A stretch of DNA of 64,000 nucleotides from Chitinophagales bacterium (lineage in GTDB: Bacteria > Bacteroidota > Bacteroidia > Chitinophagales > JADIYW01). Both the position numbers and the translations under genes were made by a program. The stretch spans positions 145,273 to 209,272 of the forward strand of contig JAMLHJ010000001.1 in assembly GCA_023957245.1 (NCBI GenBank), in the 5' to 3' direction. Below are positions 15,520-37,636 of this stretch, piece by piece (position 1 is the first letter of the stretch; each line of letters starts with the position of its first letter). A model generated the notes under the pieces. The model saw only the letters and a list, made by a program, of their open reading frames with translations. It searched no databases and was not told where the DNA came from.

Positions 15520-16299
15520 TTAAGGCAAAAACTTCACTCTTCTTTGGATAGGCAAATATAATCTCCAGATAGCTGAAAAAATCTTACATAAAGGTTCATG
15601 AGTAAACTCAGGTAAAGCTCTGAATATTGGCCATTGCTTATAAAAATATATAAAACTTTGACTTCCCAAACCACGTGCACAGATTTCGTTTTTGCGATGT
15701 TCTATAGCTTTTGGCACAAAATCAAACATTAATATAAAACGTCTCCCATCAGTATTATTCCACACCCAATGTTGAACTACATTCATAAAGCAAAACATTT
15801 TACCTTCCTCCCAACCATGTTCTTCTCCACCAGCATGAATTGCTATTTCAGGATATGGTGCAGGGACAATCAAGCCTAAGTGACCGCGAACTATACCATT
15901 GGTGTCACCATAGTGAGGATTAATTTTAGTGTGAGGGGACAACATATTGATACTTGTAAAAACAATATTTGGTATCTGATTTATAATGCTCATTGTAAAA
16001 GGAAACTGAGCCATATTCTTATGATAATACCTATTGAAACTCTTTAAATACATCAAATTCCAATATCCTCCTTCCACTTCTGCAGGAGAAACAGAACTCA
16101 TGACCTTATGGTTCTTATGTTTATTCTCATAAGCAAGGACTTCATCTCTTATTTTCTCCCAATTATCCACTAAAGGTTGTAACTCTGGAAAATTTTCAGG
16201 ATCATAAAAAGGTTTATGTTTACCATGATACTCTTCATGAGGTGGGCGTAAAAAAACTAGCTCTTCACCTTCTGGCCACTCATATTTCACCTTAATCAT
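15520..16299 (-). CDS. Aspartyl/asparaginyl beta-hydroxylase (AspH/LpxO-family Fe/2OG dioxygenase) 1
   Basis: NWEKIRDE, PHYGDTNG.VRGHLGL.VP, WEEGK, HWVWNNTD..R.ILMFD. Confidence 0.85.
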   Translation of the reverse strand: MIKVKYEWPEGEELVFLRPPHEEYHGKHKPFYDPENFPELQPLVDNWEKIRDEVLAYENKHKNHKVMSSVSPAEVEGGYWNLMYLKSFNRYYHKNMAQFPFTMSIINQIPNIVFTSINMLSPHTKINPHYGDTNGIVRGHLGLIVPAPYPEIAIHAGGEEHGWEEGKMFCFMNVVQHWVWNNTDGRRFILMFDFVPKAIEHRKNEICARGLGSQSFIYFYKQWPIFRALPEFTHEPLCKIFSAIWRLYLPIQRRVKFLP

Positions 16300-16457
16300 A
16301 ACTGAATTTCTTATTGAAATAAATGTAATAAGAAGTAGTGAAAATTATAAGTAAAATTGAGCTTAATTTTAAAAAATGACACTTTTTATACTAAAGTCAA
16401 ATACTTATTATTGAAAGTATAGCAAATCAATTACCTTAGTCAAATAAGTATTTCAAA

Positions 16458-17450
16458 TTGTATCATGTTGCACTTATAGGATATGGATATTGGGGAGTAA
16501 ATCTCCTTAGAAACCTTAATAGCAATATAAAGGTTTCAAAAATAACAGTATGTGATATTAATGATGAAATGTTGCTTGTCGCAAAAAAGAATCATCCTAA
16601 TATCCAGACAACGAAAAGCCTTGATGAGATATGGACAGACTTGTCAATTGATATTGTAGTGATTGCTACTCCCACCTCAACTCATTATTCTCTAGCTAAG
16701 CAAGCATTAGCTTCTCACAAACATACCTTAGTTGAAAAACCACTTTGCACAGATTCATTACAAGCGACAGAATTATTTGATTTAGCTAAAAAAAATAATA
16801 AAATACTATTTTGCGACTTGACATTTCTATATAATGGAGCTGTTGAATATATCCATAATTATATCAGCAATTGTCATATTGGCAATATAAAGTATATTGA
16901 TTCAACGAGAGTCAATTTAGGTATATACCATGCTGATACAAATGTAATATGGGATTTAGCAACACATGATATTTCTATTATACAAAAAATAATACAGACA
17001 GGACCTATTCAAGTAAGGGCTATCAGTAATCAATCTTCTAATAAGAACATTGACTTAGTATATATCTTTTTATATTATCCTAATGATATGCTAGTACAGA
17101 TCAACTGTTCATGGGCTTCTCCAACGAAAATAAGGCAAATGATTATAGGAGGAGAAAGCAAAATGATTATCTATGACGATGTAGAACCTACTCAAAAAAT
17201 AAAAATCTATAATTATATAAAGAGTGATAATGATAGAAATTCAACATTGACAGATTATAGATTAGGAGATATTTTAGTTCCAAAATTTTCAACTGAAGAG
17301 CCCTTGAAGAAAATGTTTGAAGATTTTTTTCAGTGTATTGAACAAAAACAATATATCCATGTCTTTCCGAACGATATTATTGAAATTATCAGAATTTTGG
17401 AAAAAGCTGAAGAATCATTGAATAAAAATGGAGAATTAATTGATTTGTGA
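16458..17450 (+). CDS. Gfo/Idh/MocA-family NAD-dependent oxidoreductase
   Basis: IGYGYWG.NLLRN, HTLVEKPL, WDLATHDIS, SWASP.K.R. TTG start. Confidence 0.88.
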   Translation: MYHVALIGYGYWGVNLLRNLNSNIKVSKITVCDINDEMLLVAKKNHPNIQTTKSLDEIWTDLSIDIVVIATPTSTHYSLAKQALASHKHTLVEKPLCTDSLQATELFDLAKKNNKILFCDLTFLYNGAVEYIHNYISNCHIGNIKYIDSTRVNLGIYHADTNVIWDLATHDISIIQKIIQTGPIQVRAISNQSSNKNIDLVYIFLYYPNDMLVQINCSWASPTKIRQMIIGGESKMIIYDDVEPTQKIKIYNYIKSDNDRNSTLTDYRLGDILVPKFSTEEPLKKMFEDFFQCIEQKQYIHVFPNDIIEIIRILEKAEESLNKNGELIDL

Positions 17451-17458
17451 TATTTTTA

Positions 17459-18154
17459 TCAATTGACTTTATACTTTGAAACTGTCAAATACAAGTGAAA
17501 TACTTCCATAATAGCTTTCTTTAACGTATTCCAACTCCCTCCCTTTGCTTGACCAAATTCTCTTCTCAGATATTGTGAAGGATAATCAAAATGACGATAT
17601 CCTTGTTTAATTAGTTTAGCACAAATTTCTGATTCTACTAAAGAACTATTTAATTGTCTATGTTGCTTACTCAATTGTTCTAATCTATATACTTTTATCC
17701 AATTGACATCAGGAACATTCAGCTTCAAAATTCTTTTGTTGAACTGTTGATTAAAACTAGTAAGAAAACTTCTATAAAGATTATAATCTTTTGACAATCT
17801 GTAAAACGTAACAAATTCATTAAATCCAAATTCATTGACATTGCTTAATTCATTGACATCAAACTGTCCATCTCCAGGAACTGCACATACGTATTGATTT
17901 ACAGCCAAATCGTATCCTTTATTTAATGCGTTCCCTATACCTTGATTATACTCCAGATTTATAATCGATAAATTTGAGAATTTTCCAATAAACGATTGTA
18001 TAACATCAGCAGTTTTATCTGTACTGCCATCGTTGATAATAATAATTTCAGAGCCAAAATAATTAGGTGTAGATAGCCAATTAATTACATCTTGAATAGT
18101 TTTAGCAATATTAAATTCTTCATTGTAACAAAAAATAATAATACTCCACTTCAT
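17459..18154 (-). CDS. GT2 glycosyltransferase (DPM1-like)
   Basis: CYNEE, INDGSTD, NQGIG, PGDGQFD, R..GQAKG. Confidence 0.85.
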   Translation of the reverse strand: MKWSIIIFCYNEEFNIAKTIQDVINWLSTPNYFGSEIIIINDGSTDKTADVIQSFIGKFSNLSIINLEYNQGIGNALNKGYDLAVNQYVCAVPGDGQFDVNELSNVNEFGFNEFVTFYRLSKDYNLYRSFLTSFNQQFNKRILKLNVPDVNWIKVYRLEQLSKQHRQLNSSLVESEICAKLIKQGYRHFDYPSQYLRREFGQAKGGSWNTLKKAIMEVFHLYLTVSKYKVN

Positions 18155-18214
18155 TTTAAAATATTGAACTATTTATAGACTGCTTTGAGTTTTAAAAAAT
18201 AATGGTTATCAAAA

Positions 18215-19855
18215 TTACACACTAGAGACATTTGATTTCTCTTCCTTTCGTTCAGTATTGCTTTCATTCAATTGGACAACTTTTCCATTCAAGTATAAAA
18301 CTTTTGGTATAGGAGTATTAGCATACACCTTAGCAATACGATAATTACTATATCCAATTTTTCTTAAGTAGAACTTGAAAATATTCTTTAAATAAAAAAT
18401 AGCATAAGTAGAAAATTCGACATTCATATCCTTAAATCCTGCATAAACATCTATAATCTGCCCTAAAAAATTTTTGATAGGTCTTGGTATCCATGCGACT
18501 GAACTTTCAGTCATTCTTTCTCGTATAAATCTTGGCATTGATGGAAGAATTCTATAAATAAATTCATAATTAACATAAATTCTTACCAATTCAGGATTTT
18601 TAATATTGTCTTGATTTCTAAAGAAATAGAAATCTTCACCATGATTCAATCGCTTCAATTCCTCATCATTGACAATACCATCTTTATATGCTTCAAATAG
18701 CATCTCTGTCCCTGGCAAAAATGCAGTCCAAAAGGTTTGTATTCTATAAGGAGTATATTTTTTGTATAAATTCAAAGCCTTTTCTTGCGCATCAATTGCT
18801 TCCCCTGGAAGAGCCAACATTTGATCAACTTTAACTTTCAATTTATATTTTTTCATTAATTCCAATGCTAATATAATCTGTTCAGATTTTTCCCTTCTTT
18901 GTAAAATATTGGTTTTAAAATCTTCATCCATAGACTGAATACCCATTTGAATCCATTTACAACCAGCATCACTCAAAGCTTTTGCAATTTCTTCATCAAA
19001 ATATTTTGCATGAACTAAAATATTAAATGGTAAAGCTATTTCACGCTGATATACTTCACAAAATTCTAGCAACCATTGTTTATCTACAGTAAATACATCA
19101 TCTTGAAAATCAACAGATTTCAATTTATATCTTTCTTTTGCCCATTTTAATTCTCCAATGACATGAGCAACACTTCTATGTCGGACGTACTTACCCCTTT
19201 TCCCTTCTGGCAAACGAGCAAAAAAGTTATTAAAACAAAAAGTACATGTATAGGGGCAACCACGAGAAGCCAATATCAAATAATTATCTCGTAGATTGAC
19301 GTAAGGTTCCCAAATCGTTTTTTCTGGATATGGAAACTCATCTAATTCCTGATGAAAACCGACTTGTCTTCCTTTGACTAATTGACCATTATTATCCAAA
19401 TATTGAGTATTATTGATTGGTAATCCTCTCCCTCCAGCTTGAATATCTTCCAAAATATCCAAAATAGCTTGTTCCCCTTCTCCTACTACTGCATAGTCAA
19501 CTTCATCATAAGATAAGCAAACTTCTGGAACAGCTGAAGTATGAACTCCACCAAAAATTGTTTTAATATGTGGATGATGCTTTTTTACTTCCTTTATTAT
19601 CTTAATTGACCATTGAAAAGTGGCAGTCAAGGCTCCAAAAGCAATTACATCAGGTTTTTTCTCAATAATGTCTTTTATAATGACATTAGTTTCATCAAAA
19701 AAACGATTCAACCATGGTATCTCCAAATTAAATCTATCGTGGAATAATGAAGCTGTAAAAGCTAAGTCAATTTCATGACCTGCTTCTTTTACAATCGATG
19801 CTAACTGACTAATTCCTAACTGTTCAGAACCTATCCCAAGAAACAATACTTTCAT
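18215..19855 (-). CDS. Cobalamin-binding radical SAM protein, copy B
   Basis: RGCPYTCTFC and a B12 domain. Shares long identical blocks (LFHDRFNLEIPWLN, GEDFYFFRN) with 3615-5225. Confidence 0.9.
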   Translation of the reverse strand: MKVLFLGIGSEQLGISQLASIVKEAGHEIDLAFTASLFHDRFNLEIPWLNRFFDETNVIIKDIIEKKPDVIAFGALTATFQWSIKIIKEVKKHHPHIKTIFGGVHTSAVPEVCLSYDEVDYAVVGEGEQAILDILEDIQAGGRGLPINNTQYLDNNGQLVKGRQVGFHQELDEFPYPEKTIWEPYVNLRDNYLILASRGCPYTCTFCFNNFFARLPEGKRGKYVRHRSVAHVIGELKWAKERYKLKSVDFQDDVFTVDKQWLLEFCEVYQREIALPFNILVHAKYFDEEIAKALSDAGCKWIQMGIQSMDEDFKTNILQRREKSEQIILALELMKKYKLKVKVDQMLALPGEAIDAQEKALNLYKKYTPYRIQTFWTAFLPGTEMLFEAYKDGIVNDEELKRLNHGEDFYFFRNQDNIKNPELVRIYVNYEFIYRILPSMPRFIRERMTESSVAWIPRPIKNFLGQIIDVYAGFKDMNVEFSTYAIFYLKNIFKFYLRKIGYSNYRIAKVYANTPIPKVLYLNGKVVQLNESNTERKEEKSNVSSV

Positions 19856-19978
19856 TATAAAAACTTCACTACGTAAAAATGAATAAATTTAAGTAATTGT
19901 TATATAAATTGTCAAATAATAACGAATACAGTTAGTCGTAATGTTTTGAAAAATGTAAGATATCACAGAAATATTGAG

Positions 19979-21001
19979 TTAAAAAGAGCCTGAAATATAA
20001 AACACAGTAATAATACTACCCTGAACTGATCTTTTAGCAACAACCAAAAACTCATTATGGAATTTTATGGGCATTGAAAATATCAATTCATTTTGAAGAT
20101 TACCAACACTTTGTATTGAGCAATATTTTATTTCTTTAAACTCAAACTTATCAATTGACTTCTTTACAAAAATATCAGCGTAGAATAATATTTTGTTCAA
20201 TGAAAAATCATTTGATTGGACTACCATATTGTCTTCTTGCGTCAAAGACAACATGGGCAAAATATGAAAAACATTTTCTGAGCCAATAGGTCTAAAACCT
20301 ACATCTTGAAATATTTTCTGAACATAAGCATTCTCATTTCTTGCACCAAATGCAAAATGAGATAAACCATTATCAACACAAAAATTTTTGATATACCTGA
20401 GCATATCTAAAAAATAGCCTCCTTTGCGAAAGGGTTCTAATATCCCTCCAATGTGAGACTCTAACCCTCCATCAATAATATTTAAAGCAAAAAAACCTAC
20501 ATAATTACCATTATGATTCATAAATAAGATAGAATTTTCCGATCTAAAACTATTTAAGTTGTTTCTTTTGTAAAACTTAAAAACACTTTCTATTTCAGAA
20601 TCCTTGTTGACAAGATGTTTCAAGTATGGCGTTCTATAATAACCTAAAGGATAGTCTCCCCATGTCCCTTTTAACATTTCCATGAGCAATTCTTCTTGTG
20701 AACCATCATACACCTCATAAGTCATATCAGGATGAACAAACTCGCCCTCAGGCTTACTTTTAATAGGAGTTTTGTATCTTCTTATACTGCCAGAAAAGAA
20801 AAACGGCATACCCATCAAATGTAGCTTATCAGATGCTAACTCATCTTCTGCTGGAATTTTCAATCTACACAAATCATATTGCCCCTCAACAATCTCTTTC
20901 AAAAGTGATGTAGAATCAAAATTATCCTCATTATATCTACTTACTTTAAAACCTAAAACATCCGTTTCATTTTGAGACAGCCAGACTTTCTTATCATCCA
21001 T
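19979..21001 (-). CDS. GNAT-fold acyltransferase, WecD-like
   Basis: N-terminal ETDVLGFKVSR resembles the WecD partial domain. C-terminal GNAT core with RKGGYF (acetyl-CoA loop) and N..VQKIFQDVGF. Confidence 0.55.
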   Translation of the reverse strand: MDDKKVWLSQNETDVLGFKVSRYNEDNFDSTSLLKEIVEGQYDLCRLKIPAEDELASDKLHLMGMPFFFSGSIRRYKTPIKSKPEGEFVHPDMTYEVYDGSQEELLMEMLKGTWGDYPLGYYRTPYLKHLVNKDSEIESVFKFYKRNNLNSFRSENSILFMNHNGNYVGFFALNIIDGGLESHIGGILEPFRKGGYFLDMLRYIKNFCVDNGLSHFAFGARNENAYVQKIFQDVGFRPIGSENVFHILPMLSLTQEDNMVVQSNDFSLNKILFYADIFVKKSIDKFEFKEIKYCSIQSVGNLQNELIFSMPIKFHNEFLVVAKRSVQGSIITVFYISGSF

Positions 21002-21046
21002 ACTTCTATATCTTTACTGGTCAAATATACAAATCTATAAACAGGA

Positions 21047-22330
21047 TTAACGAACATAATCTCTCTTTAAGCTCTTTGAATAGGCATGATAATCGACTTG
21101 TATTGTATGTCGCAATGATGAGTAAAAATTATTAGCAATATATTCATCATGCTTCAATATTTCTTTATTCATTTCGTCTGTATTGGGCAAGATAAAATCA
21201 CCTTTCAATAAAGATACAACCCACTTTACTTGTTCTTCTATTGTTCTTGTCAAGGAATAATTAGGTTGTATAAATCCTAAAAAAAAGATTCTGTTCTCAT
21301 TAGGAAATACAATTCTTTTATAGAGTTTCAATTGATTTGTCTTCTCAATCTCTTTATTGTTATATAATTCATCACTCAAAAAAGGAATAGAGATTTTATA
21401 TCCAGTGCTTGCGATCACTGCATCATAATTTTGACTATAATTATCAGTAAATTCAATAATATTATTCTGAATTTTCTGAATTCCTGATCTAAAATGTATT
21501 CTACCCTTACTTAATAAAGGAAAAATTTCAGATGAAACAGTTGAATGATGATCTAATAATTTATAACTAGGTTTAGGAATACCCAGTTGTTGTTGATTAC
21601 CTGTAGAAAGCTTCAGCACTATATGCCCTATCCATCTTTTTAAAAATTTGGGTAAAGGAATAGGGTTATTTGTAGATAAATCTCCCAATGGCTTCCCAAA
21701 AACAAAATGAGGATAGATATAAGCACTATTTCTTGTTGAAATATCTACTTTAATATCTGTATGTTTTGCTAAATCACAAGCAATATCAACAGCAGAATTA
21801 CCTATTCCTATCACTAAGACTGACTTGCCACGAAAATCATCTGCACACCTATACTTAGATGAATGTAAAAAGATGCCACTAAAATCTCTTTCGATCTCTT
21901 TGGGTATTTGCGCCAAATCATGATGACCAGTAGCAATAATGATATAGTTATATTCGATTTCAATCGAATTGTTTAATTTAACTATAAAAATATCGTCCTG
22001 TTTTTTAATATTTACAACTTCTGTATTAAATGAAATATGTTGAAGAATATCATAATGAAGAGCATAGCTTTTGATATAATCTAGCATCTCTTGATGAGAA
22101 GGGAAAATAGGAAAACTCTCAGGCATAGGAAAACTCTCCCATTCTGTAGCACTTTTTGTGGTATTGATATGCAGAGAATCATAGATTTTTCCATTTTCAA
22201 AATTCCACAATCCACCAATATTGTTTCCCTTTTCAAAACAATCAAACAATATATTGTTCTGCTTTAAGTATTTACAAACTATTAATCCAGCAATTCCTGC
22301 TCCTATAACACAAATCTTCTTTGATTCCAT
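21047..22330 (-). CDS. Flavin-containing monooxygenase (class B FMO)
   Basis: GAGIAG FAD site, FMO fingerprint FSGIFLHSSKY, GIGNSA NADPH site, STGY. Confidence 0.9.
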   Translation of the reverse strand: MESKKICVIGAGIAGLIVCKYLKQNNILFDCFEKGNNIGGLWNFENGKIYDSLHINTTKSATEWESFPMPESFPIFPSHQEMLDYIKSYALHYDILQHISFNTEVVNIKKQDDIFIVKLNNSIEIEYNYIIIATGHHDLAQIPKEIERDFSGIFLHSSKYRCADDFRGKSVLVIGIGNSAVDIACDLAKHTDIKVDISTRNSAYIYPHFVFGKPLGDLSTNNPIPLPKFLKRWIGHIVLKLSTGNQQQLGIPKPSYKLLDHHSTVSSEIFPLLSKGRIHFRSGIQKIQNNIIEFTDNYSQNYDAVIASTGYKISIPFLSDELYNNKEIEKTNQLKLYKRIVFPNENRIFFLGFIQPNYSLTRTIEEQVKWVVSLLKGDFILPNTDEMNKEILKHDEYIANNFYSSLRHTIQVDYHAYSKSLKRDYVR

Positions 22331-22425
22331 ACGATTAAAGACAATTTATCTTCAATTATTAGCATAAACTTTTCTAAATTTACAAATTAAGAATAAAAAT
22401 TTATTTTCTAAATTAGGAAATCAAC

Positions 22426-23223
22426 ATGGAAAGTTTGCAAGACTCTAATTCTCTACTTACAAACGACGTGTATTCAACCGAACCTATATATTACACATAT
22501 AGAGGAAAATGGTATAAAGGCCATTTTCCCACCTATTATGATAGCCATGAATTTAGATTTAATAAGGATTTTGAAGATAATTATCTAACAATCAAACAAG
22601 AATTCGAATCCTATTATTCTCATTCAAAAAGTAAAATAAAAACATTCTATATTCCACATGATTTCACAATCGATGGCTGGAAGATTTTGACTATTTGGGG
22701 ATATGTCAACCATAAAATTTTTATTTTAAGACACTTCCCAACCATTAAGAAGCTACTCAAAAAATATCCTGAAATTATATCTATGCAAATTAGCATTTTG
22801 CAACCCAACACTAGAATAAAGGCACATTTTGGAGGTAGCAATGCTCTTGTTAGGCATCACCTTGGAATACATATACCAGGAAAGGCTCCCGATTTAGGAT
22901 TCAACTTAAAAGGTGAAGTCAGAGTATGGGAAGAAGGAAAAGTATTATCTTTCTGTGAATCTCACAGACACTATGTATGGAATTTCACCAATCAAAACAG
23001 AGTAATTTTAATGTATGATAGCATCCATCCATTATATAAGAAGGAAAAACACTCTGTAGTGGCTGGTGTGACAAGTATTTTAATCATGGTTATTTTATTG
23101 AAAAAGTTACCGTGGCTGGGCAAAGTTTCACCTCGATTAGAAATTTTGTTACATAAAATATTATCTGCTTGTATTTTGCCTATCTTTATCATTAGAGATA
23201 TTGTTAAAAGACCTTTTATGTGA
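22426..23223 (+). CDS. AspH/LpxO-family Fe/2OG dioxygenase 2
   Basis: AHFGGSNALVRHHLGI, WEEGK, HRHYVWN, hydrophobic C-terminus. Confidence 0.85.
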   Translation: MESLQDSNSLLTNDVYSTEPIYYTYRGKWYKGHFPTYYDSHEFRFNKDFEDNYLTIKQEFESYYSHSKSKIKTFYIPHDFTIDGWKILTIWGYVNHKIFILRHFPTIKKLLKKYPEIISMQISILQPNTRIKAHFGGSNALVRHHLGIHIPGKAPDLGFNLKGEVRVWEEGKVLSFCESHRHYVWNFTNQNRVILMYDSIHPLYKKEKHSVVAGVTSILIMVILLKKLPWLGKVSPRLEILLHKILSACILPIFIIRDIVKRPFM

Positions 23224-23230
23224 TTTTCAA

Positions 23231-24214
23231 TTACTGAATATTAATACCCATATCCTGATTTTGAATCTCTACATCATCTTGATTAATTATTGCAGCAAGT
23301 TCATCCCCAACAAGGTGATGAGCAATTTTATTTGGATGACTATCTAACCTATTGACAACCAGCAAATGAGGAGGGCATTCTTAATTATTTTGCTGACATT
23401 CAATACTTTAACTCCTTGAAGCGCAAAAAAGTTACAAATTTCATCTACATAAAGAGTATTGCTAAATTCTATATTTGTGAGCTCTGGGAAGACTAAAACA
23501 TATAGAGTTTTTTTATTTGACGAACAGTAGTCTATGATTTCTTGTAATTCTTTTTTATGCTCTGACATGATAGTTTCAGATTTCCACAAAGCAAGATATT
23601 TTTCATATTTATCAAAGTCTATCCAATATTTTGGAAACATCCAAAATATAGTATTTGCAATATAGGAGAAACTGAGTAATGGATTTTTTAAAATGGTATT
23701 CAGTTTATCTTCATCTAAGGGAAGCATATCCTCTTTGCCTATTTTTTTTATAGTTTCATCAAAATCATTCATATAATATTGATAAACAACAATATCAGAT
23801 GTAGATGCAATTTTTTTTAAGATTATCGAGTTGTTTTTGAGAACCATTGTTCGGTTGTCCCAGATTTATTATGTTGGCTGAAAATTGAAGTCTTTCTCCA
23901 CAAACTTTATCATACCTATCTTTAATAGATTTTAAACCGATACCAGATGTGAAGGAATCTCCAATGAAAGCAATCGTCTTTTTTGCTGTCAAATTAAATT
24001 CATAATCACGAAATCCGTGAGAGTTTAGAGGATGATAATATATCATTATCCAATTTAATCTTAATAGAGAGGAGCCTCCCATACTGACAGGAGCAATAGT
24101 TAATATACCTTCCACTACCAAAATAGAAAAAAATAAGACTTTAAATAACTCTTGAAACTTTATAGTATTTTTAACAATAAATAGTAATCCAACAATAGCA
24201 GTTAATCTAATCAA
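23231..24214 (-). pseudogene. SGNH/GDSL hydrolase gene broken by two frameshifts (pseudogene or sequencing error)
   Basis: Frame 1 has NSHGFRD and FIGDSFT. An extra A in the A8 run (T8 at 23811-23818) shifts to DIVVYQYYMND. A second shift near 23381 hides VVNRLDSHPNKIAHH, ending at TAA 23231-23233. Confidence 0.8.
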
Positions 24215-25935: not shown

Positions 25936-25944
25936 ATCACAATC

Positions 25945-27486: not shown

Positions 27487-27505
27487 CCTTAATATAATTA
27501 TATAC

Positions 27506-29482
27506 TTAATACAATTTAGGCATTTTATCTACAACGTCCAGCACCTCAGAACCATTCATATCTAAGTGGTCAAAATACCATTTTAGCGACTCGTATCGTG
27601 GCTGATTTTCTTCCATCACCAAATCAAAAGCTTCCTTTCTCGTTAAAACACCTTCTCTAATCTGCCTAGAACGAAAGGAATCATTCTCTGTAAATCCTTG
27701 TACCTGACAATAAATATAATTATAAAATGCAGATGAACCATCATCTGTTCTCCACATCTGTGAGGTTTCAGAAGACTTTTCCCAATTGTATTCATTGACT
27801 AAAGTCTGATTAATCAAATCCTCTTTCCAAGGAATATAATGCCACAAATACAAGTAATCATGTTGCTGAATATATGTTGAAAAATAAGCTAAACTTGTAT
27901 CCCAAAAGGAAGAGTTGAAATAAGCTGGATTTTTCAAATACCTCCACCCATAAAAAGAAAGTAATTTTAATTTATCTTTAGTAGGTAAATAATGTATCAC
28001 TCCTCCAGGGTCAGCATCTTTGATACCACAATGACCATTTTTAAACTCTTCTTTTTCAAATTCATTTCCTCTAAAGAAAAACATCAATTTTATATTGTAT
28101 TTCTTCATTAATTGGTCAGCATAGAATTCACATTGTTTATCCCCTTGCATAAACAATGGAACCATTCCCAAATGTGGATCTTTCATCCAAGCCAAAATAT
28201 TTTTCCTAATATGCTCTCTTTTCTTAGAAATATCTGCCGAAAGTAAAAGGTGCTCAACTCCCAATTGACCCAACATTCTAGCTTGGTTTCTTCTTGCTAA
28301 ATCTGTCACCATACCCCAATCATAAGTATATGCCATAGGATTCATACCTAATTCCTTTTTGAGATAATGCAAACCATAAGAGCTATCTCTACCTCCACTA
28401 AATGCCGCAATGCAATCTGGAGAACCATCTTTACTCCTATACTTTTCTAATTTTTCTTCTAAAGTAGCTTTTCCTTTATAAAGAATAGGTGTGTGATCAT
28501 TACAAAAATTGCATACTCCAAAGCTATCAAAAGATATAAAAGGAGTAGAAATAGGAAGCAGACACTTTGAACATCTTTTCTGATTCATTATCCGATTAAA
28601 ATCTATCGAGTGAGTTTTCAGTTGTTGGATACTATTGACAAATTTCAATGTTGGAGAATCTATGTTTTTCCATTGAACTTCAATTTTCCTAAATTCGTTA
28701 GTAGTTTTTGGCAGTTTCTTAGGATATTCTAAAGAATCACTATTAAATTCTTCTTCTGAAACTATTTTCCCTTCTTGAAAACACAAAAAATTTCTAGGTT
28801 GCAACTTTTTTATTTCCTCAGTTTGAAGAGTAAATGATGCTATAATTTCATCTAAAAATATTTTTTCTGATGCAAAATAGATTCGACTTGTTTGAGTATC
28901 AACGCAGTAATACAAAGAGCCAGTATTCGTATAAATAAAGACGCTTTGAGTTGCCAAATCCACCAATGCAAAACTTGCTGAACCTTCAATTATATTGTCC
29001 AGCATTTTGATAGCCTTTGAGATGCCATATTGCTTGGAGTAAACTGATAAATATTCTAAAAGCACTTTTGAATCCAAAGAAGGCAATTCTAAATGAGGAT
29101 AAGTATTCTTCCATAATACTTCAGGATTAGTAATAATGCCATTATGTACTAAAACATAAGATAAATCCTCTGTTATTAAAGGTTGATTATTATCATTGTC
29201 ATTCTGTGAACCATGAGTGGCTAATCGAGAATGCCCAATAACTGCTAAGACTTCTGAATCTCTACTTTTTGAAAGAAAACTTTGATATTCTTCTGATATT
29301 AATAAATCTTCCCCTACAATACCAGATTTCAATAAAACAATCTCATCATTATTATTAATAGTCAATAACCCAGATGCTTCCTTACCTCTTGAACTAGATA
29401 GATTCAGTAGTTTAGCAATAATTTCCTCCAGCTTGTTATAAGATGAAGGATATTTATTTAACACACCAAAAATTCCGCACAT
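27506..29482 (-). CDS. Fusion of Ntn (class II) glutamine amidotransferase and N-acetyl-sugar amidotransferase (WbpG-like PP-loop)
   Basis: N-terminus MCGIFG...GHSRLATHG...HNGIITN. C-terminal half CSKC...CNFC, FSGGRDSSY, A..NQ. Confidence 0.8.
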   Translation of the reverse strand: MCGIFGVLNKYPSSYNKLEEIIAKLLNLSSSRGKEASGLLTINNNDEIVLLKSGIVGEDLLISEEYQSFLSKSRDSEVLAVIGHSRLATHGSQNDNDNNQPLITEDLSYVLVHNGIITNPEVLWKNTYPHLELPSLDSKVLLEYLSVYSKQYGISKAIKMLDNIIEGSASFALVDLATQSVFIYTNTGSLYYCVDTQTSRIYFASEKIFLDEIIASFTLQTEEIKKLQPRNFLCFQEGKIVSEEEFNSDSLEYPKKLPKTTNEFRKIEVQWKNIDSPTLKFVNSIQQLKTHSIDFNRIMNQKRCSKCLLPISTPFISFDSFGVCNFCNDHTPILYKGKATLEEKLEKYRSKDGSPDCIAAFSGGRDSSYGLHYLKKELGMNPMAYTYDWGMVTDLARRNQARMLGQLGVEHLLLSADISKKREHIRKNILAWMKDPHLGMVPLFMQGDKQCEFYADQLMKKYNIKLMFFFRGNEFEKEEFKNGHCGIKDADPGGVIHYLPTKDKLKLLSFYGWRYLKNPAYFNSSFWDTSLAYFSTYIQQHDYLYLWHYIPWKEDLINQTLVNEYNWEKSSETSQMWRTDDGSSAFYNYIYCQVQGFTENDSFRSRQIREGVLTRKEAFDLVMEENQPRYESLKWYFDHLDMNGSEVLDVVDKMPKLY

Positions 29483-29636
29483 AAAAAGTCAATATTTAAA
29501 GCCTCCGACATGAAAGGTATATTTCAAAAATAGCAGAATATATAGACTAAATAAAAAATCACCCATAAATTATTCAACAACTTCTTTACAAACATTATAT
29601 TTGAATAATTCTGTTTCTAAACTTCATGCAAATTAA

Positions 29637-31370
29637 ATGGCAAATCAATATATTTTAGGCATCAATGGTTTAGGAATATCTCCTAGTGCTTGCCTAATTA
29701 AAGACGGTCAATTAATCGCTATGGTAGAAGAGGAAAGATTCACAAGACAAAAAAACTCTAATAGTCTAATGCCTGGCAATGCTGTTGCCTATTGTCTAAA
29801 AGAGGCCAATATTTCAATAAAAGATGTTGAACAAATCGCATTTGCTTGGGATGCTAATTTCTATAAATATAAAATCTATTGGTTCTTAATCAAACAATTC
29901 ATTAAAAGGTTTTTTGAGCTAAGATCTTCATCATCAAATATTTTAAGAGTTTTTCAAGAAGTTATCAAATATCATCCTCTTCAAGTCAAAAATCAGATAA
30001 GAGAGATGTTCCGTACACATGGGATTAGTGATAAATTGCCACCTATTCAATTTGTATCACATCATTATACTCATGCTACATCTACATTTTTTGCTTCTCC
30101 CTTTAATGAAGCTACAGTTCTTGTCATTGATGGTAGCGGAGAAAATCTTTCTACAAGTATTTGGAAAGGAGAAAATCATCAATTAAAACTAATGGACAAA
30201 TATTTTATCCCTGATTCATTAGGATGGTTTTATCAAACTATGACTGAATTTCTTGGTTTTACTCCCAATCATCATGAAGGCAAAGTCATGGCATTAGCTG
30301 CTTATGGTAATTACAATAAGGATATTGACGAAGCACTAAAAAAAGTGTTGCAAATATTTCCAAATGGCAGATATCAGTTCAATCCTTCCTATTCATTTTC
30401 AGGGAAAAATGAAAAAGGTGTAGTGTTTAGCACCCAATTAGAAAATCTTTTAGGCCCTTCGAGGAAGCCAAATGAAGAAATTACTCAATTTTATAAAGAT
30501 ATTGCCTTTCACACTCAAGGCTTATTAGAAAATGCTGTCAAGTCTATCCTATTAAATATTTCAACAAAAAAGTGGTATTCTCCAAATATTTGTATTGCTG
30601 GAGGAGTAGGACTTAATTGCAAGATGAATGGAAAAATCGCTTCATTATCTGTTGTAAATGACATATTTGTCCCTCCATTTTCAAGTGATATTGGAACTTC
30701 TTATGGGGCAGCCATTGCTATAACAAACAAAAAAATTGAACCATTAAATCATGCATATTGGGGACCAGAGTATAATGACAATTATATCTATGAAGTGCTC
30801 AAAAAATATAATATTCCACATCAAAAAGTAGAAGATATAGCAGGTGCAGCTGCACATTTATTAATGGAAAACAAGATTATTGCATGGTTTCAAGGAAGGA
30901 TGGAGGTAGGAGCCAGAGCATTAGGAGCTCGATCTATTATTGCTAATCCTACCATCTCAAGTAATAAAGATTTTATCAATAAACATATCAAAAATAGAGA
31001 AACTTGGCGTCCTTTTGCTATTTCTATTTTAGAAGAACATAAACATCAATTCATTGACACTTCAATTGATGCACCTTTTATGTCAATAGCATTTGATGTC
31101 AATGAGTATGCAATCAATAATATTCCTGCAGCTATTCATATTGACAATACAAGCAGACCCCAATTTGTAAAAAAATCAGCCCTGCCCATCTATTGGGAAC
31201 TAATTAATAGATTTGGAGAACTTTCAGGAGTATATGCCTTATTAAATACTTCTTTTAATCTGAAAGAGGAACCCATAATCTGCTCTCCTGAACAAGCAAT
31301 AAGATCCTTTTATACATCTGAACTTGATGTATTAATTATGGGCAATTATCTCATTTTCAAACCACAATAG
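29637..31370 (+). CDS. Carbamoyltransferase (NodU/CmcH family), copy B
   Basis: MVEEERFTR.K, HHYTHA, IDGSGE, EGKVMALAAYG, WFQGRMEVGARALGARS, NTSFN. Confidence 0.92.
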   Translation: MANQYILGINGLGISPSACLIKDGQLIAMVEEERFTRQKNSNSLMPGNAVAYCLKEANISIKDVEQIAFAWDANFYKYKIYWFLIKQFIKRFFELRSSSSNILRVFQEVIKYHPLQVKNQIREMFRTHGISDKLPPIQFVSHHYTHATSTFFASPFNEATVLVIDGSGENLSTSIWKGENHQLKLMDKYFIPDSLGWFYQTMTEFLGFTPNHHEGKVMALAAYGNYNKDIDEALKKVLQIFPNGRYQFNPSYSFSGKNEKGVVFSTQLENLLGPSRKPNEEITQFYKDIAFHTQGLLENAVKSILLNISTKKWYSPNICIAGGVGLNCKMNGKIASLSVVNDIFVPPFSSDIGTSYGAAIAITNKKIEPLNHAYWGPEYNDNYIYEVLKKYNIPHQKVEDIAGAAAHLLMENKIIAWFQGRMEVGARALGARSIIANPTISSNKDFINKHIKNRETWRPFAISILEEHKHQFIDTSIDAPFMSIAFDVNEYAINNIPAAIHIDNTSRPQFVKKSALPIYWELINRFGELSGVYALLNTSFNLKEEPIICSPEQAIRSFYTSELDVLIMGNYLIFKPQ

Positions 31371-33107
31371 ATGTCAGGAATTACCGGGTTTTATCTGCAA
31401 AACGAAAAGGGAAAGTTGCAAATCGCAATAAAAAATATGCTTGCCACTGTTCAACATCGAGGCAAATATCACCAATCTATATATACTGATTTTCATCCAT
31501 TTTATATTGCTCATGCCTCTTCTGAAGTTTCTTCCAACAATAATGAAATAAACATTTCTGGGAACAAATACCTTTTTTTTCTTGATGGCTACATTTCCAA
31601 CTTCAAACAAATTAAAGATTCTTTAGCAATTCCATCTGATGATATTTCAATCATTATTTTGAATGCATATTTGAAATATGGCAAGAAAGTATTTGGAAAA
31701 TTAACAGGGAAATTTGCTATCGTAATTTATGATCATTCCCAACAGGAAATTATATTAGCTAGAGATTATTTAGGTCAAAAACCTTTATACTACACACAAA
31801 AAAAAGGATTTGCATTCTCTTCTGAATTGAATGCATTCAAGGAGGTATTAGGTGAGTTGCAACTATCTATGCAAGGTATGAACGAATTTTTGAGTATTGG
31901 ATATACTTTACAACCTCATACTATTTATGAAGATATTTTCATCATTCCACCTGCTTCGTACTTAGTCTATAATATTTCTAGTCATTTAGTTCAAATAGTA
32001 GAATACGAACAAATTGGCCATTATTATGCCAATAAGCATCAAGATAAATATGCTGATATTCTTCAAAATGTAAATGCGATATTTCAAAATTCATGTAATA
32101 ACTATCCACAAGCAGACAATAAATTAGCTGTTTTTCTAAGCAGTGGACTTGATTCATGTGCTGTACTTTCTGCTATACACAAGAATAAAAACAATAATAT
32201 TCTTGCACACACTATCTCTTATGGCAAATCAAAGTATGATGAAAGTATATTGGCTCAAAAAATAGCTCAACATTATAATGTACAACATCAAATAATTGAC
32301 TTATCTCAAATTGACAAAGAAGATTTTGACAGATACCTGCAAACTACTGACTATGTAAATTTTGACAATTCTTCATATCCCATTTATCTTTTGTCTAGAG
32401 TAGCTTCTCAGAATGTAAATTTGGCTTTAACAGGCGATGGCGGGGATGAGCTATTTGGAGGATATACAACTTACAAAGCAGACACAATTAATCAAATAAT
32501 TAAGCCAATTATTCCTCTAATAAAAAAATCTATTTTTCAAAAATCAATCCTAAAAATAACTAGTAACAAGAATGATAAATTGGGTTTTGCTACTAAAATG
32601 AATCGTTTTCTAAATGGAATTGATACAGATATACAAAAAGCCCATTATCAATGGAAACTTATCTTCAATCCACAACAGAGAATATCTCTATTGGGCGAAA
32701 AGTATAAAGAACTTATATACGATACAGACCCATTTTATAAATTCCAAAGAATCTATCATCAAGTGCCACACTTGGAGCAAAAAGACCAACATATCTATGT
32801 TGATATGAAAACTTGGTTTGCAGATAATAATCTAATTAAGTTGGATCGTTCTACAATGGCATATTCATTGGAAACATACGCTCCTTTTCTTGATAAAGAT
32901 TTATTTAAATATGTAGCAGCTTGCCCTTCAAAATATAAAAACAATAAACAAATTTTAAAGGACGTATTAAAAAACACACTCCCCAATTATATCATCAAAC
33001 GCAAAAAGTCAGGATTCAATAGCCCTGTCCATCAATGGTTTGATATTCAAGAAGATGAATTTGAATATTACACTCAACTTCTTTATTTTAGGAAATATAC
33101 TTTATAA
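31371..33107 (+). CDS. asnB: Asparagine synthetase B-like amidotransferase lacking the catalytic N-terminal Cys
   Basis: HRG, RDYLGQKPLYY, FLSSGLDS, LTGDGGDELFGGY, DRSTMAYSLE..PFLD, KKSGF. Begins MSGITG instead of MCGI.G. Confidence 0.8.
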   Translation: MSGITGFYLQNEKGKLQIAIKNMLATVQHRGKYHQSIYTDFHPFYIAHASSEVSSNNNEINISGNKYLFFLDGYISNFKQIKDSLAIPSDDISIIILNAYLKYGKKVFGKLTGKFAIVIYDHSQQEIILARDYLGQKPLYYTQKKGFAFSSELNAFKEVLGELQLSMQGMNEFLSIGYTLQPHTIYEDIFIIPPASYLVYNISSHLVQIVEYEQIGHYYANKHQDKYADILQNVNAIFQNSCNNYPQADNKLAVFLSSGLDSCAVLSAIHKNKNNNILAHTISYGKSKYDESILAQKIAQHYNVQHQIIDLSQIDKEDFDRYLQTTDYVNFDNSSYPIYLLSRVASQNVNLALTGDGGDELFGGYTTYKADTINQIIKPIIPLIKKSIFQKSILKITSNKNDKLGFATKMNRFLNGIDTDIQKAHYQWKLIFNPQQRISLLGEKYKELIYDTDPFYKFQRIYHQVPHLEQKDQHIYVDMKTWFADNNLIKLDRSTMAYSLETYAPFLDKDLFKYVAACPSKYKNNKQILKDVLKNTLPNYIIKRKKSGFNSPVHQWFDIQEDEFEYYTQLLYFRKYTL

Positions 33108-33121
33108 TTCTAGATTAAAAA

Positions 33122-33985
33122 ATGCCGAAAAATATTTTCACAATTGACTATGAAGATTGGATGACAACTAGTCATTATAAGGCAGTTGTTAAAGACACTA
33201 ACAAAAAGTATCTCTTAGAAAAACCTACTCATCAATTATTAGACTTATTGGAGCGTCATCAAGTTAAAGCAACTTTCTTCGTATTAGGTCAGGTAGCAAA
33301 AGATTGTTCACTACTTATTAGGGCTATTAACAATAAAGGACATGAAATAGCTAATCATGGATATAGCCATACACCTATACATTTTCTTTCTCCAAATGAT
33401 TTCATTCATGAGCTCAGAGAAACCAATAAAATATTAGAAGATATTACACAAAAAAAAGTAAAAGGATTCAGAGCACCATTTTTCTCTCTCAATCAAAAGA
33501 GCCCTTGGGTAATAGATACACTTATAGAAGAAGGTTTTGTTTATGACTCAAGTATTTTTCCTATGAAAACACCCAGATACGGAGTCAACAAAGCCCCCTT
33601 AAAACCATATTATATCTCTTCAGAAAATATATTAAGACACTCTCAACAACAAGAATTAATAGAGTTTCCCATATCTATTTATAAAAGTAATTTTTTAAAA
33701 ATACCCAGTGCTGGTGGAATTTATGGTCGATTCCTACCTGAGAAAATTTTCCTTAAATTATTGAAAGAAATTCATAAGCAAAATCTCATTCATCTATATA
33801 TTCATCCTTGGGAATTAATTAATAAAAGGGAATTAGCTCCACATCCAGGATGGATAAAGAATATACTTGCAAACTATAATTCTGAACAATATATAAATAA
33901 GTTGGAAAAGGCAATTCAGCTATTTCAATTTACAAATATTGAAACTTGGATTGCTGAAAATAAGAGCTATTTCAATCAGTATTAA
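33122..33985 (+). CDS. Polysaccharide deacetylase (CE4, DUF3473-type)
   Basis: FTIDYEDW, ATFFVLG, HEIANHGYSH, GFRAPFFS, YDSSIFP, YIHPWE. Confidence 0.88.
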   Translation: MPKNIFTIDYEDWMTTSHYKAVVKDTNKKYLLEKPTHQLLDLLERHQVKATFFVLGQVAKDCSLLIRAINNKGHEIANHGYSHTPIHFLSPNDFIHELRETNKILEDITQKKVKGFRAPFFSLNQKSPWVIDTLIEEGFVYDSSIFPMKTPRYGVNKAPLKPYYISSENILRHSQQQELIEFPISIYKSNFLKIPSAGGIYGRFLPEKIFLKLLKEIHKQNLIHLYIHPWELINKRELAPHPGWIKNILANYNSEQYINKLEKAIQLFQFTNIETWIAENKSYFNQY

Positions 33986-34839
33986 CCTCTGTTAGACTTC
34001 AAATATCGTTGCTTCCAAAAAAACATTTTTGCCATTAAAAAAGATATTTTTGGAATCACCAACAAGACATTCATTTTACTTACTCTTTCTTTTTTATAAA
34101 TTGGAGTTATTGGAACTTCTATAACTCGACTATTCAATACACTTAATCTGACCAAAACATCATTGACATAGCCATATTTATTATAAATAGCTGAGATATC
34201 TATTTTCTTTAAAGTAGATAGATGAATAGCAGTAAAACCAGATTGAGCATCCTCAATAAAATGATAACCAGAACAAACTCTTGTAAAAAATGCAAGGACA
34301 TATATACCTATTAAACGAACAAACGGAATAATTTGATTAAAATTTGGATGACTGAGTCTATTACCTTTAGTATAATCAGCTTGTCCATTAATGACTGGCA
34401 TACATATTTGTTCTAATTCTTTTGGGCACATCTGACCATCTCCATCCATTGTAGCGATACAACTAGTATTGAGCAATTTAGCTATTTGATACCCTGACTT
34501 CACTCCTGCTCCTTTACCTAGATTGGTTGAATGCTGAATGATGATATACTGTGTACCATCATTATATAGATTTATCTCATCACACAAGCATTCGATTTCT
34601 TTTAAAGAACCTATATAAGTCTTACTTTTCGCTTCTGACCTAGAATCAATATTATCTTTAGCTACCAAAACACTCTTGTCAGTACTTCCATCATCTACTA
34701 GAATAATAAAATCAACAAAAATTGGAATCGTGCTTATGACCTCTGACAGACTTTTCTCCTCATTAAAAAAAGGAATAATTAAAGTAACTTTCTGTTGATT
34801 AAGCATAAAAACAAAATACTGCTGAGTATTATTATACAA
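33982..34839 (-). CDS. GT2 glycosyltransferase (DPM1-like)
   Basis: IPFFNEE, VDDGSTD, N.GKGAG, DGDGQM, KGNR, DAQSGFTAI. Confidence 0.85.
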   Translation of the reverse strand: MYNNTQQYFVFMLNQQKVTLIIPFFNEEKSLSEVISTIPIFVDFIILVDDGSTDKSVLVAKDNIDSRSEAKSKTYIGSLKEIECLCDEINLYNDGTQYIIIQHSTNLGKGAGVKSGYQIAKLLNTSCIATMDGDGQMCPKELEQICMPVINGQADYTKGNRLSHPNFNQIIPFVRLIGIYVLAFFTRVCSGYHFIEDAQSGFTAIHLSTLKKIDISAIYNKYGYVNDVLVRLSVLNSRVIEVPITPIYKKERVSKMNVLLVIPKISFLMAKMFFWKQRYLKSNRG

Positions 34840-34881
34840 ATATATGAAGCAAGATAAAAATTAAATTAACATTCCCATACA

Positions 34882-35640
34882 TTATAAGTTAATTTCCCTA
34901 ACTGGCGTATGAGATTTAATGGTATCTGTAAATTGTAATTGATATTCATTGATTATTGTCTTCATATAAGGAGAATGACTATATAAATAAAATAATACCT
35001 TATTAAATAGATTTAATGGAAAAGGAAATTTTCTAAATAAGTCTAGATACAAAACTGCTCTGATTTCATCAGTATTATTTTTAACCTCATGCTCAAAAAC
35101 TTCATCAAAATATATTGCTTCCCCAGCTTCAAAAAAATATTGCTTACCATCCACTCTAATCCAACAATCTCCACCCTTCTTGACTGACAAAGTAAAAAGA
35201 CATCTCATCACGCCTTTATAAACTCCGAAATGAGGTTTTATATGTTTATAAGGCAATAACACTGAATACATTGCACTTGTACAACCTGGAATCTGCTTAA
35301 TTACTTCAAAAGTATTTGGGCACAATCTTATATTTCTTTCAAAAGTATTATTCCACATCAAAAATGGGAAGGCCTTCCATTGATTATCAATTCCAATATC
35401 TGTATTGACTTTATAAAAATCCTCTATATTAGTCAAATCATTACTGAGATAAACTTTTTCAAACTCTTCTTTGATTATCTGTAAATTATCCTTTAATAAA
35501 TTATCAAATGGCACTTTAGAAGCATCTATAACATCAATATCTCTGCCTATAAGATTTACACAGCGATTAAATAGCCAAATTAAAAACAAACCAGGGAACA
35601 ATACAATGTTATACCAAATTCCTCTCTCTACTTTTTCCAT
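34882..35640 (-). CDS. AspH/LpxO-family Fe/2OG dioxygenase 3
   Basis: IKEEF, AMYSVL.P..HIKPHFGVYKGVMR, FDEVFEHEV.N.T...R.VLYLD. Confidence 0.88.
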   Translation of the reverse strand: MEKVERGIWYNIVLFPGLFLIWLFNRCVNLIGRDIDVIDASKVPFDNLLKDNLQIIKEEFEKVYLSNDLTNIEDFYKVNTDIGIDNQWKAFPFLMWNNTFERNIRLCPNTFEVIKQIPGCTSAMYSVLLPYKHIKPHFGVYKGVMRCLFTLSVKKGGDCWIRVDGKQYFFEAGEAIYFDEVFEHEVKNNTDEIRAVLYLDLFRKFPFPLNLFNKVLFYLYSHSPYMKTIINEYQLQFTDTIKSHTPVREINL

Positions 35641-36444
35641 TTATCTTTTCTTAAATTTTAAAAAAGAAGCAATTTTTGAAATATCAATTCCGAATTTTTC
35701 TTGTAAAAAGAATAAAAAGTAAAATGGTATAATAAAAATATTAAACAATAATTTTGTCAGCCAAATAGGAATATCTTTCAATCTAGGAAACTTAGTAGTA
35801 AACATCTTCATTGTAATAATTGCTAAAGATGCAGCACATAAATATGTTTTTTTATCGACATAATCTGGATGAACAGTATCCACTAAAAGTACGATTCTAT
35901 GCTTATCTGTATTATTCCAAGCAAAATGCCTATGTGATTCACTAAATGCAAAAACTCCACCTTCTTCCCAACATTTATTTTCAGTCCTCACTCTTATTCC
36001 TAAATCTGGATATTTACCTGGAATAAAAATCCCTAAATGATACCGAAGCAATGCATTACTACCTGAAATGTGTGCCTTTATTCTCGTATTAGGATTTAAC
36101 ACACTGATTTGTGCACCTACCATATTGGGAATCTGCTTTAAAACACTATTAAGCTTAGGAAATTTATTAATATTATCAATATTCTTTAAAGTAAATCCAT
36201 AAAAATTTAAGACTTGCCAGTTGATATTATGATAGTTATGAGGAACATACATAGGCTCAAAACCTGGTCGGTTTGAATTATAATAGTCAATTATCTCATC
36301 TCTTATTTCTTCAAAATTATCCTTGAGTAGCTTTGTTGTAATAGTATTCTCAACATTGACAAATGATGGTAGTTTTCCTTTATACCAATTGCCATAAAGA
36401 TTAAAATATATAGGTTCTCGTTTCAAAATAGCTGAATAATTCAC
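35641..36444 (-). CDS. AspH/LpxO-family Fe/2OG dioxygenase 4 (close paralog of 22426-23223)
   Basis: PNTRIKAHISGSNALLRYHLGI, WEEGG, HRHFAWN. GTG start. Stop abuts the start of the next gene. Confidence 0.85.
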   Translation of the reverse strand: MNYSAILKREPIYFNLYGNWYKGKLPSFVNVENTITTKLLKDNFEEIRDEIIDYYNSNRPGFEPMYVPHNYHNINWQVLNFYGFTLKNIDNINKFPKLNSVLKQIPNMVGAQISVLNPNTRIKAHISGSNALLRYHLGIFIPGKYPDLGIRVRTENKCWEEGGVFAFSESHRHFAWNNTDKHRIVLLVDTVHPDYVDKKTYLCAASLAIITMKMFTTKFPRLKDIPIWLTKLLFNIFIIPFYFLFFLQEKFGIDISKIASFLKFKKR

Positions 36445-37634: not shown

Positions 37635-37636
37635 TA

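Follow-up and report, generated by a model that had tools for sequence, protein, structure and literature searches.

A window of 64,000 nucleotides from a Chitinophagales bacterium (assembly GCA_023957245.1, contig JAMLHJ010000001.1; “the window” refers to this whole stretch) carries four genes of the Asp_Arg_Hydrox family PF05118, here called AspH1 to AspH4 (proteins P0001 to P0004). These genes lie in an island of sugar- and lipid-modifying functions (Table 1) and probably encode membrane-associated tailoring hydroxylases that act on lipid-linked intermediates, a reading to which we assign a probability of about 0.55 and in which the class of substrate is inferred. It starts from what was observed: the enzyme family and fold, the catalytic residues, the membrane segments, and a gene neighbourhood that recurs. 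All four genes would encode active Fe(II)/2-oxoglutarate (2OG) hydroxylases with an active site of the AspH/OlsC type, in which two histidines bind the iron, a glycine (serine in AspH4) replaces the Asp/Glu ligand, and two arginines hold 2OG; in three of the four paralogs, a second-sphere glutamate at the position of Asp721 in human AspH would retain the water molecule by which the coordination of the iron becomes complete. Attachment to the cytoplasmic membrane would be provided by an N-terminal anchor in AspH3, a C-terminal helical hairpin in AspH2 and AspH4, and an amphipathic helix in AspH1. The surrounding genes are predicted to form a variable envelope-decoration island, which makes modified sugars on polyprenyl phosphate by means of ArnC/PpgS-like GT2 proteins, DegT, a deacetylase and GT-C-like proteins, and which also encodes acyl-chain desaturases. 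Each paralog would then hydroxylate an intermediate that is bound to the membrane; this could be an acyl chain or, alternatively, a lipid-carried sugar of the acylated or amino type. The reactions would presumably take place at the cytoplasmic face, with a regiospecific division of labour. We favour this reading because apparent operons link AspH4, AspH3 and a GT2 gene on the one hand, and AspH1 and a cytochrome b5-fused desaturase on the other, because the neighbourhood recurs in other genomes, and because of the membrane segments; the lipid and lipopeptide contexts of relatives, i.e., a fatty acyl-AMP ligase (FAAL) with an aminotransferase in Acaryochloris and a non-ribosomal peptide synthetase (NRPS) with HlyD/ABC genes in Alteromonas, point the same way. 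The membrane-associated hydroxylase role put forward in a preliminary description of this DNA thus fits both the gene context and the membrane segments.

Table 1. Location of the PF05118 genes, their immediate neighbours and the surrounding island in the window.
Feature	Position	Strand	Remarks
AspH1 (P0001, 259 aa)	15520..16299	-	PF05118 2OG oxygenase; motif HYGD...QHWVWNNTDGRR
AspH2 (P0002, 265 aa)	22426..23223	+	PF05118; HFGG...ESHRH
AspH3 (P0003, 252 aa)	34882..35640	-	PF05118; HFGV...FDEVFEH
AspH4 (P0004, 267 aa)	35641..36444	-	PF05118; rare HIS variant + ESHRH
Tailoring island	111..46138	.	ends before thiE at 46282
Cytochrome b5-fused fatty acid desaturase-family gene	14050..15393	-	126 nt downstream of AspH1
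Flavin monooxygenase (FMO-like) gene	21047..22330	-	divergent from AspH2
GT2, polyprenyl-phosphate sugar synthase type (285 aa)	33982..34839	-	42 nt downstream of AspH3
JmjC/Cupin_8 oxygenase gene	36567..37634	+	divergent from AspH4

The assignment to the family is clear: PF05118 (157 profile positions, gathering score 22.6 bits) matches P0001 to P0004 with E-values of 7e-38, 5e-31, 2e-35 and 3e-34 and scores of 108-130 bits, with profile positions 1-157 spanned in every case, and the only other Pfam matches of the four proteins are to Cupin_1/Cupin_2 and Pro_sub2, below threshold. Together with the reading of the motifs, this bears out the earlier proposal of four AspH/LpxO-family 2OG oxygenases with a two-histidine site, which by sequence are further members of a known enzyme family. 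All four open reading frames are intact, and a search of the whole genome (3.08 Mb, 100% complete, low-GC, Bacteroidota) found exactly these four PF05118 genes, all within 21 kb; since the only four matches of the genome share 21 kb, their clustering is not due to chance. AspH4 is 32% identical to the adjoining AspH3 over 154 residues, too little for a recent tandem duplication, and judged by their divergence the four paralogs are old lineages rather than a recent array.

The first metal motifs had been described as HYG, HFG, HFG and HIS, and the translations read accordingly: the first histidine stands in NPHYGD in P0001, KAHFGG in P0002, KPHFGV in P0003 and KAHISG in P0004, and the second in QHWVW, HRHYV, FEHEV and HRHFA, respectively. 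When P0003 is aligned to human AspH, PHFG falls on PHTG (the first motif of the human enzyme being HTG) and FEHEV on FEHEV. Iron in AspH is bound by His679 and His725 alone (PMC6817910), and the equivalents of these residues and of the 2OG-binding Arg688 and Arg735 are all kept in the four paralogs, while the position of His690 is taken by leucine in P0003. The same set (both histidines, arginine at His1+9 and arginine at His2+10, counted from the first and second histidine) is present in 166 of 167 relatives. These relatives are 150 representatives of the 8,217 sequences that were hit at E ≤0.001 when 1.84 billion proteins were searched in full with HMMER; homologues of P0003 were added from a word-indexed search that returned 21 matches, one of them with an informative name.

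The preliminary description had treated the absence of the HxD/E carboxylate as special and as a hint of halogenation. However, the residue at His+2 is glycine in 165 of 169 relatives, serine in three and aspartate in one, and hydroxylases such as AspH and OlsC are included among the carriers of HxG, which is also found in every Bacteroidota singleton of the phylum sample that was retrieved by the profile search and has a readable motif. Reference sequences were chosen by the NCBIfam equivalog cut-offs, 450 bits for OlsC (NF052565) and 500 bits for LpxO (NF033391). The OlsC references that pass (507-509 bits, Pseudolabrys) read PHRGP...FDDAFEH, whereas the LpxO references from Tahibacter soli (532 bits, passing) and Dyella jejuensis (406 bits, just below the cut-off) read HRD, in the motifs KHRDP and PHRDP. 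Other than these LpxO references, the PF05118 sequences read have HxG or HxS, and none has HRD. The canonical triad therefore seems confined to the LpxO lineage within PF05118; on the motifs compared, the AspH/OlsC branch is characterised by HxG, and LpxO is the exception among the rows read. HxG as the state of the whole family was considered and ruled out by the H-R-D of the cut-off-passing LpxO reference. In the tree, the LpxO lineage nests within an HxG clade. The serine of AspH4 is kept as HFS in its orthologue from a congeneric genome (G039).

In AspH, the vacant ligand position is occupied by a water molecule held by the second-sphere Asp721, and the D721A exchange costs about 80% of turnover (PMC10915816). 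At the corresponding position, His2-4, an acidic residue is present in 155 of 167 relatives; in P0002, P0003 and P0004 it is glutamate. The possibility of a carboxylate supplied from another position, raised in the preliminary description, thus holds insofar as three of the four paralogs have a second-sphere acid, but this acid is not a ligand. P0001 and its orthologues have asparagine at this position and aspartate at His1+3; the latter residue is found in 120 of 169 relatives. AspH1 shares this combination with two orthologues (L053 and L004), unlike the other three paralogs, and the Asn/Asp pattern may represent a different way to complete the iron site. The idea that acids at His1+3 and His2-4 substitute for each other was rejected, as both are present in 110 of 167 relatives.

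These observations bear on the notion that the four proteins are 2OG-dependent halogenases, with chloride in the vacant carboxylate position. It could draw on the replacement of HxD/E by HxG or HxS, as in enzymes of the SyrB2, WelO5 and BesD types (Ala or Gly), and on the additional lack of the second-sphere acid in P0001. The hint is weak, however, because HxG is usual in the branch, because three of the four paralogs have glutamate at the water-holding position, and because AspH itself did not halogenate: addition of chloride gave no halogenase activity (PMC6817910). Pfam yielded no match to a known halogenase family, either, and we consider halogenation very improbable.

Structural comparison leads to human AspH as well. 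A profile search of the PDB returned human AspH as sole match (E 7e-38). An AlphaFold2 model of P0004, built from 71 sequences (pLDDT 93.8, pTM 0.91), has the double-stranded beta-helix fold of the AspH oxygenase domain, followed by two long, confidently predicted helices (residues 193-218 and 227-251). With this model as query, ranks 1-11 of the Foldseek list are all AspH (E 8e-15; TM 0.80 normalised on 5apa; root-mean-square deviation 2.6-3.0 over about 190 columns at about 25% identity), and other 2OG oxygenases appear from E 1e-7 on. Cpz10 was considered as nearest structure and rejected: 7v4f ranks twelfth, at E 1e-7 versus 8e-15 for AspH, and the PDB profile search finds AspH only.

Human AspH (PDB 5apa, 5jqy, 6yyu) is therefore the only solved relative by profile and fold, and it shares with the window proteins the two-histidine site, glycine at His+2, the pair of 2OG-binding arginines and the second-sphere acid position (Asp721 there, glutamate in three paralogs). 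The window proteins differ from it in lacking a tetratricopeptide repeat (TPR) domain and a topology of the endoplasmic reticulum type, in the replacement of Arg686 and Lys666, and in a gene context of bacterial sugar and lipid tailoring; human AspH, in turn, lacks the C-terminal segment of about 55-80 residues that forms the helical hairpin in the P0004 model. Arg686 and Lys666 bind the carboxylate of the substrate (PMC10915816), and the TPR domain is needed for the epidermal growth factor (EGF) domain substrate (PMC6817910). At the position of Arg686 (His1+7), P0001 to P0004 have I, L, V and L, and 115 of 167 relatives have I or V; at the position of Lys666 (His1-13), a hand count in the motif alignment, made for these two proteins only, gives Met in P0003 and Gln in P0004. 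No TPR match was obtained with Pfam in the four paralogs, which are 252-267 aa long. Because Arg686 is replaced and the TPR domain is missing, the four proteins are not strict AspH-type protein hydroxylases.

A wider version of this idea is that the paralogs are peptidyl beta-hydroxylases, comparable to AspH with its EGF domains, and that they modify Asp, Asn or another residue in a surface protein, in a non-ribosomal peptide or in a ribosomally synthesized and post-translationally modified peptide (RiPP). That AspH is the only solved relative speaks for it, as do an adjoining gene that resembles JmjC protein hydroxylases, the SPASM and B12 radical SAM genes of the island, which are typical of RiPP tailoring, and the five tandem relatives that follow an NRPS gene in Alteromonas. 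Apart from the small size of the proteins, the missing TPR domain and the aliphatic residue at the Arg686 position in all four and in most relatives, with the Lys666 position not conserved, it is countered by the island itself, which is dominated by sugar enzymes and has no NRPS (a precursor peptide gene was not searched for). Peptidyl hydroxylation thus appears unlikely and, like halogenation, less likely than the acyl hydroxylation of core membrane lipids discussed next.

The main rival is that the paralogs are ordinary lipid acyl 2-hydroxylases like LpxO, OlsC or OlsD, with lipid A, aminolipids or sphingolipids as substrates, and that their position in a glycan island is incidental. OlsC and LpxO are indeed the best NCBIfam matches: OlsC ranks first for all four paralogs, with 91, 83, 136 and 93 bits for P0001 to P0004 and AspH3 as the closest, and LpxO scores 80, 49, 88 and 53 bits. 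All of these values are below the cut-offs (48-136 bits versus 450-500), and the prospect of routine LpxO orthologues, raised in the preliminary description, is at odds with scores of 49-88 bits against a cut-off of 500. In a careful tree (IQ-TREE, 59 rows, LG+C20), with which a quick tree of 110 rows agrees, AspH3 falls into a 21-row clade (support 98/99) together with the OlsC and LpxO references, inside neither; the OlsC clade (95/89) excludes all four paralogs, and AspH3 belongs to a neighbouring subclade. AspH1, AspH2 and AspH4 are part of a separate 32-row clade (99/98) that contains no reference enzyme among its rows. The comparison with LpxO and OlsC that had been proposed therefore places AspH3 on the LpxO/OlsC side and the other three paralogs apart, and judged by scores and tree together none of the four is an LpxO or OlsC orthologue. 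AspH2 is a long-branch, fast-evolving sister of AspH4 and the AspH4 orthologue (100/91), so that these two genes, which had been called close paralogs, are sister lineages but share merely 39% identity over 238 residues. Orthologues of AspH1, at 59-62% identity, occur in genome G040 and in a Chitinophagales metagenome-assembled genome (MAG).

Comparison with the reference enzymes themselves is similarly divided. OlsC (NF052565; Rhizobium tropici, Brucella microti) resembles the window proteins in HxG, in the FDD-type second-sphere acid of its references and in size, but differs in that the window genes lie in a variable island by GT2 genes and in a genome without an OlsB/OlsF/GlsB-type match. 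LpxO (NF033391; Salmonella) belongs to the same Pfam family and is likewise a membrane-anchored 2OG oxygenase acting on an inner-membrane lipid, whereas its references have H-R-D, transmembrane-grade segments at both the N- and the C-terminus, and a length of about 300-340 aa. PF13444, the N-acyltransferase family of OlsB, OlsF and GlsB, has no match in the 100%-complete genome, although the Bacteroides thetaiotaomicron and E. coli controls match, and the OlsH route lies outside this search; this absence makes a classical OlsC role less likely, and the genome may lack the usual aminolipid route.

Besides the NCBIfam matches and the position of AspH3, hydroxylation of core membrane lipids gains from the adjoining desaturase genes, from membrane anchors that resemble those of the LpxO references, from the AspH3/OlsC-like nature of typical single-copy PF05118 genes in Bacteroidota, and from the fact that no gene has yet been assigned to the 2-hydroxylase that acts on ornithine lipid in Flavobacterium (PMC12971839). 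Against it stand, in addition to the low scores, the separate 99/98 clade of AspH1, AspH2 and AspH4 and the missing PF13444 match, the presence of copies in only 20 of the 45 genomes of the bacterial family, which would be odd for a core membrane-lipid function, and the GT2 neighbour of AspH3-like genes, which is kept in three genomes. Furthermore, a Brucella gene named lpxO by homology turned out to be olsC (PMC5767591), and the substrate within PF05118 therefore cannot be read from homology. On balance, acyl hydroxylation of core lipids is a credible though clearly less probable explanation than the tailoring of lipid-linked intermediates.

Membrane association was assessed by 19-residue Kyte-Doolittle maxima. 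The C-terminal tails of P0002 (2.11) and P0004 (2.02) are transmembrane-grade, with the C-terminal segment of AspH2 forming a transmembrane-grade hairpin, and so are residues 12-31 at the N-terminus of P0003 (1.73). P0001 has no transmembrane-grade segment (maximum 0.58); its strongest amphipathic helix is the C-terminus, residues 239-256, with a hydrophobic moment of 0.64. The hydrophobic or amphipathic tails noticed earlier are thus present in each of the proteins. As a rule, relatives possess a C-terminal segment of about 67 residues, which reaches transmembrane grade in 39 of 152.

Sugar enzymes predominate in the island. Small GT2 genes and genes for polytopic membrane proteins are each present five times, the membrane proteins having no match in Pfam or NCBIfam. 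The island further encodes two DegT aminotransferases, a polysaccharide deacetylase, two carbamoyltransferases and AsnB/WbuX-type amidotransferases, five radical SAM proteins (two of them B12-dependent) and two proteins of the desaturase family (one fused to cytochrome b5), as well as the FMO, the JmjC protein, a C-methyltransferase, a 4,6-dehydratase and a GFO oxidoreductase. ArnC, PpgS, AglJ and PgfS are polyprenyl-phosphate monosaccharide synthases. The GT2 beside AspH3 has its best NCBIfam matches to PpgS, AglJ and ArnC, all below the cut-off; for ten GT2 proteins (three from the window and seven from beside AspH-like genes elsewhere), the best match is ArnC in seven cases and AglJ and PgfS in one case each, the GT2 of AspH3 being the one with PpgS. 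Among the island proteins scanned, there is no match to the Wzx, Wzy or initiating-transferase families. Since the GT2 proteins are ArnC/PpgS/AglJ-like and are accompanied by unmatched membrane proteins, with no Wzx, Wzy or initiating-transferase match, the island suggests several Arn/Gtr-like modules, in which a sugar is loaded onto polyprenyl phosphate and then transferred in the periplasm, rather than a classical O-antigen or capsule locus. One of the membrane proteins resembles PMT_2/GT87 clusters in a protein atlas look-up, which is a lead only. Within the island, AspH4, AspH3 and the GT2 gene are tightly packed as a single unit: the stop codon of AspH4 abuts the start of AspH3 (gap of 0 nt), and 42 nt separate AspH3 from the GT2 gene. 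AspH2 is monocistronic, opposite the FMO gene.

Similar arrangements are found in other genomes. Among 401 sampled Bacteroidota genomes, 38 carry a PF05118 gene and two carry four copies, namely the present one and a genome of the same family, within which four copies recur, so that four in one locus is as unusual as the preliminary description had supposed, and such multiplicity is not common in the phylum. In the bacterial family of the source, 20 of 45 genomes have a PF05118 copy, and five others hold three to seven. Genomes of this family (L050-L057) reshuffle AspH-like genes with GT2, B12 radical SAM, desaturase and polytopic membrane protein genes. AspH-GT2 adjacency recurs in L050, L054, L055, L056, L057, L058, L092 and further loci, AspH-desaturase adjacency in L054 and L056, and an AspH-like gene lies beside a B12 radical SAM gene in L053. 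AspH3-like genes have a GT2 neighbour in three genomes, and a trio of DegT, AspH and GT2 genes recurs in another family (L092). No relevant paper that connects PF05118 or asparaginyl beta-hydroxylases with glycan gene clusters was found in a search of the literature.

Arrays of relatives are also found in pathways of other kinds. In Alteromonas sp. a30 (L006:318-18588), five tandem PF05118 genes (7617-11465) directly follow an NRPS of the domain order C-A-T-C-A-T-TE; behind them lie another NRPS gene, a P450 gene and exporter genes of the HlyD and ABC types. The locus resembles an uncharacterised cluster of the lipopeptide type that includes five hydroxylases. In Lysobacterales, three copies precede a kinase-like gene and HlyD/ABC genes. 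Acaryochloris marina MBIC11017 (L022:4561-14692) has three tandem OlsC-like genes between two FAAL-type AMP-ligase genes; a class I/II aminotransferase gene and an LPG_synthase_TM gene lie close by. This locus looks like a lipid-building cluster, and its OlsC-like trio is present in four other Acaryochloris assemblies. In MAGs of Flavobacteriales and other Bacteroidota, three copies occur with GT2, GNAT and FabH genes and an FAD halogenase. This cassette of GT2, GNAT, three AspH-like genes and FAD halogenase (L017, L018, L019, L021, L025, L028, L058) resembles the window in that the PF05118 paralogs lie by an ArnC-like GT2 and in that two of the three fall into the 32-row clade of AspH1, AspH2 and AspH4. 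It differs in that its genes belong to other subclades and are no orthologues of the window genes, and in that it carries FabH, SDR, ACAD, AMP-ligase and halogenase genes and has none of the sugar genes of the island that encode DegT, carbamoyltransferase and radical SAM proteins.

Several points weigh against the proposed tailoring of lipid-linked intermediates. P0001 lacks the acid equivalent to Asp721, and P0003 lacks the equivalent of His690; there is no GT2 gene within 2.5 kb of AspH2; the GT2 matches lie far under the equivalog cut-offs; and the assignment of the membrane proteins to GT-C is a lead only, drawn from one language-model result. Moreover, gene context is not transferable between clades, because relatives take part in differing pathways, such as those with NRPS genes or the FabH/halogenase cassette. 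A more specific version of the tailoring proposal, which we put forward with considerable reserve, is that AspH1, AspH2 and AspH4, together with the 32-row clade, constitute a distinct class of membrane-associated 2OG oxygenases that would hydroxylate polyprenyl-phosphate-linked amino sugars or their N-acyl groups before transfer across the membrane to an acceptor by a GT-C enzyme, with each paralog serving its own ArnC/ArnT-like module. Among described oxygenases, we are aware of none with such a role in the tailoring of lipid-linked glycan donors, and no search aimed at one was made.

With respect to the family as a whole, the missing carboxylate is explained as ordinary for the AspH/OlsC branch of PF05118. 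A well-supported clade without a reference enzyme among its rows emerges as a source of recurrent multi-copy arrays in tailoring clusters of several phyla, and its Bacteroidota members keep an ArnC-like polyprenyl-phosphate sugar synthase as neighbour. Once known, the substrates of these hydroxylases would make it easier to interpret the large and variable islands for envelope decoration that environmental Bacteroidota carry. The typical single-copy PF05118 genes of other Bacteroidota (L078-L094) are AspH3/OlsC-like (HRGP or HKGP with FDD) and have no glycan genes nearby; these genes of the phylum sample are candidates for the missing 2-hydroxylase of the Flavobacterium aminolipid, i.e., ornithine lipid (PMC12971839).

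Two further genes of the island have homologues in comparable settings. Homologues of the JmjC/Cupin_8 gene are located near PF05118 genes in five other loci (L004, L011, L027, L028 and L056), and the pairing of the two oxygenase types is therefore recurrent. The region 19979-21001 encodes a protein of 340 aa with no Pfam match and a weak RimI/GNAT hit, homologues of which adjoin AspH-like and GT2 genes in L005 (twice), L050, L055 and L056.

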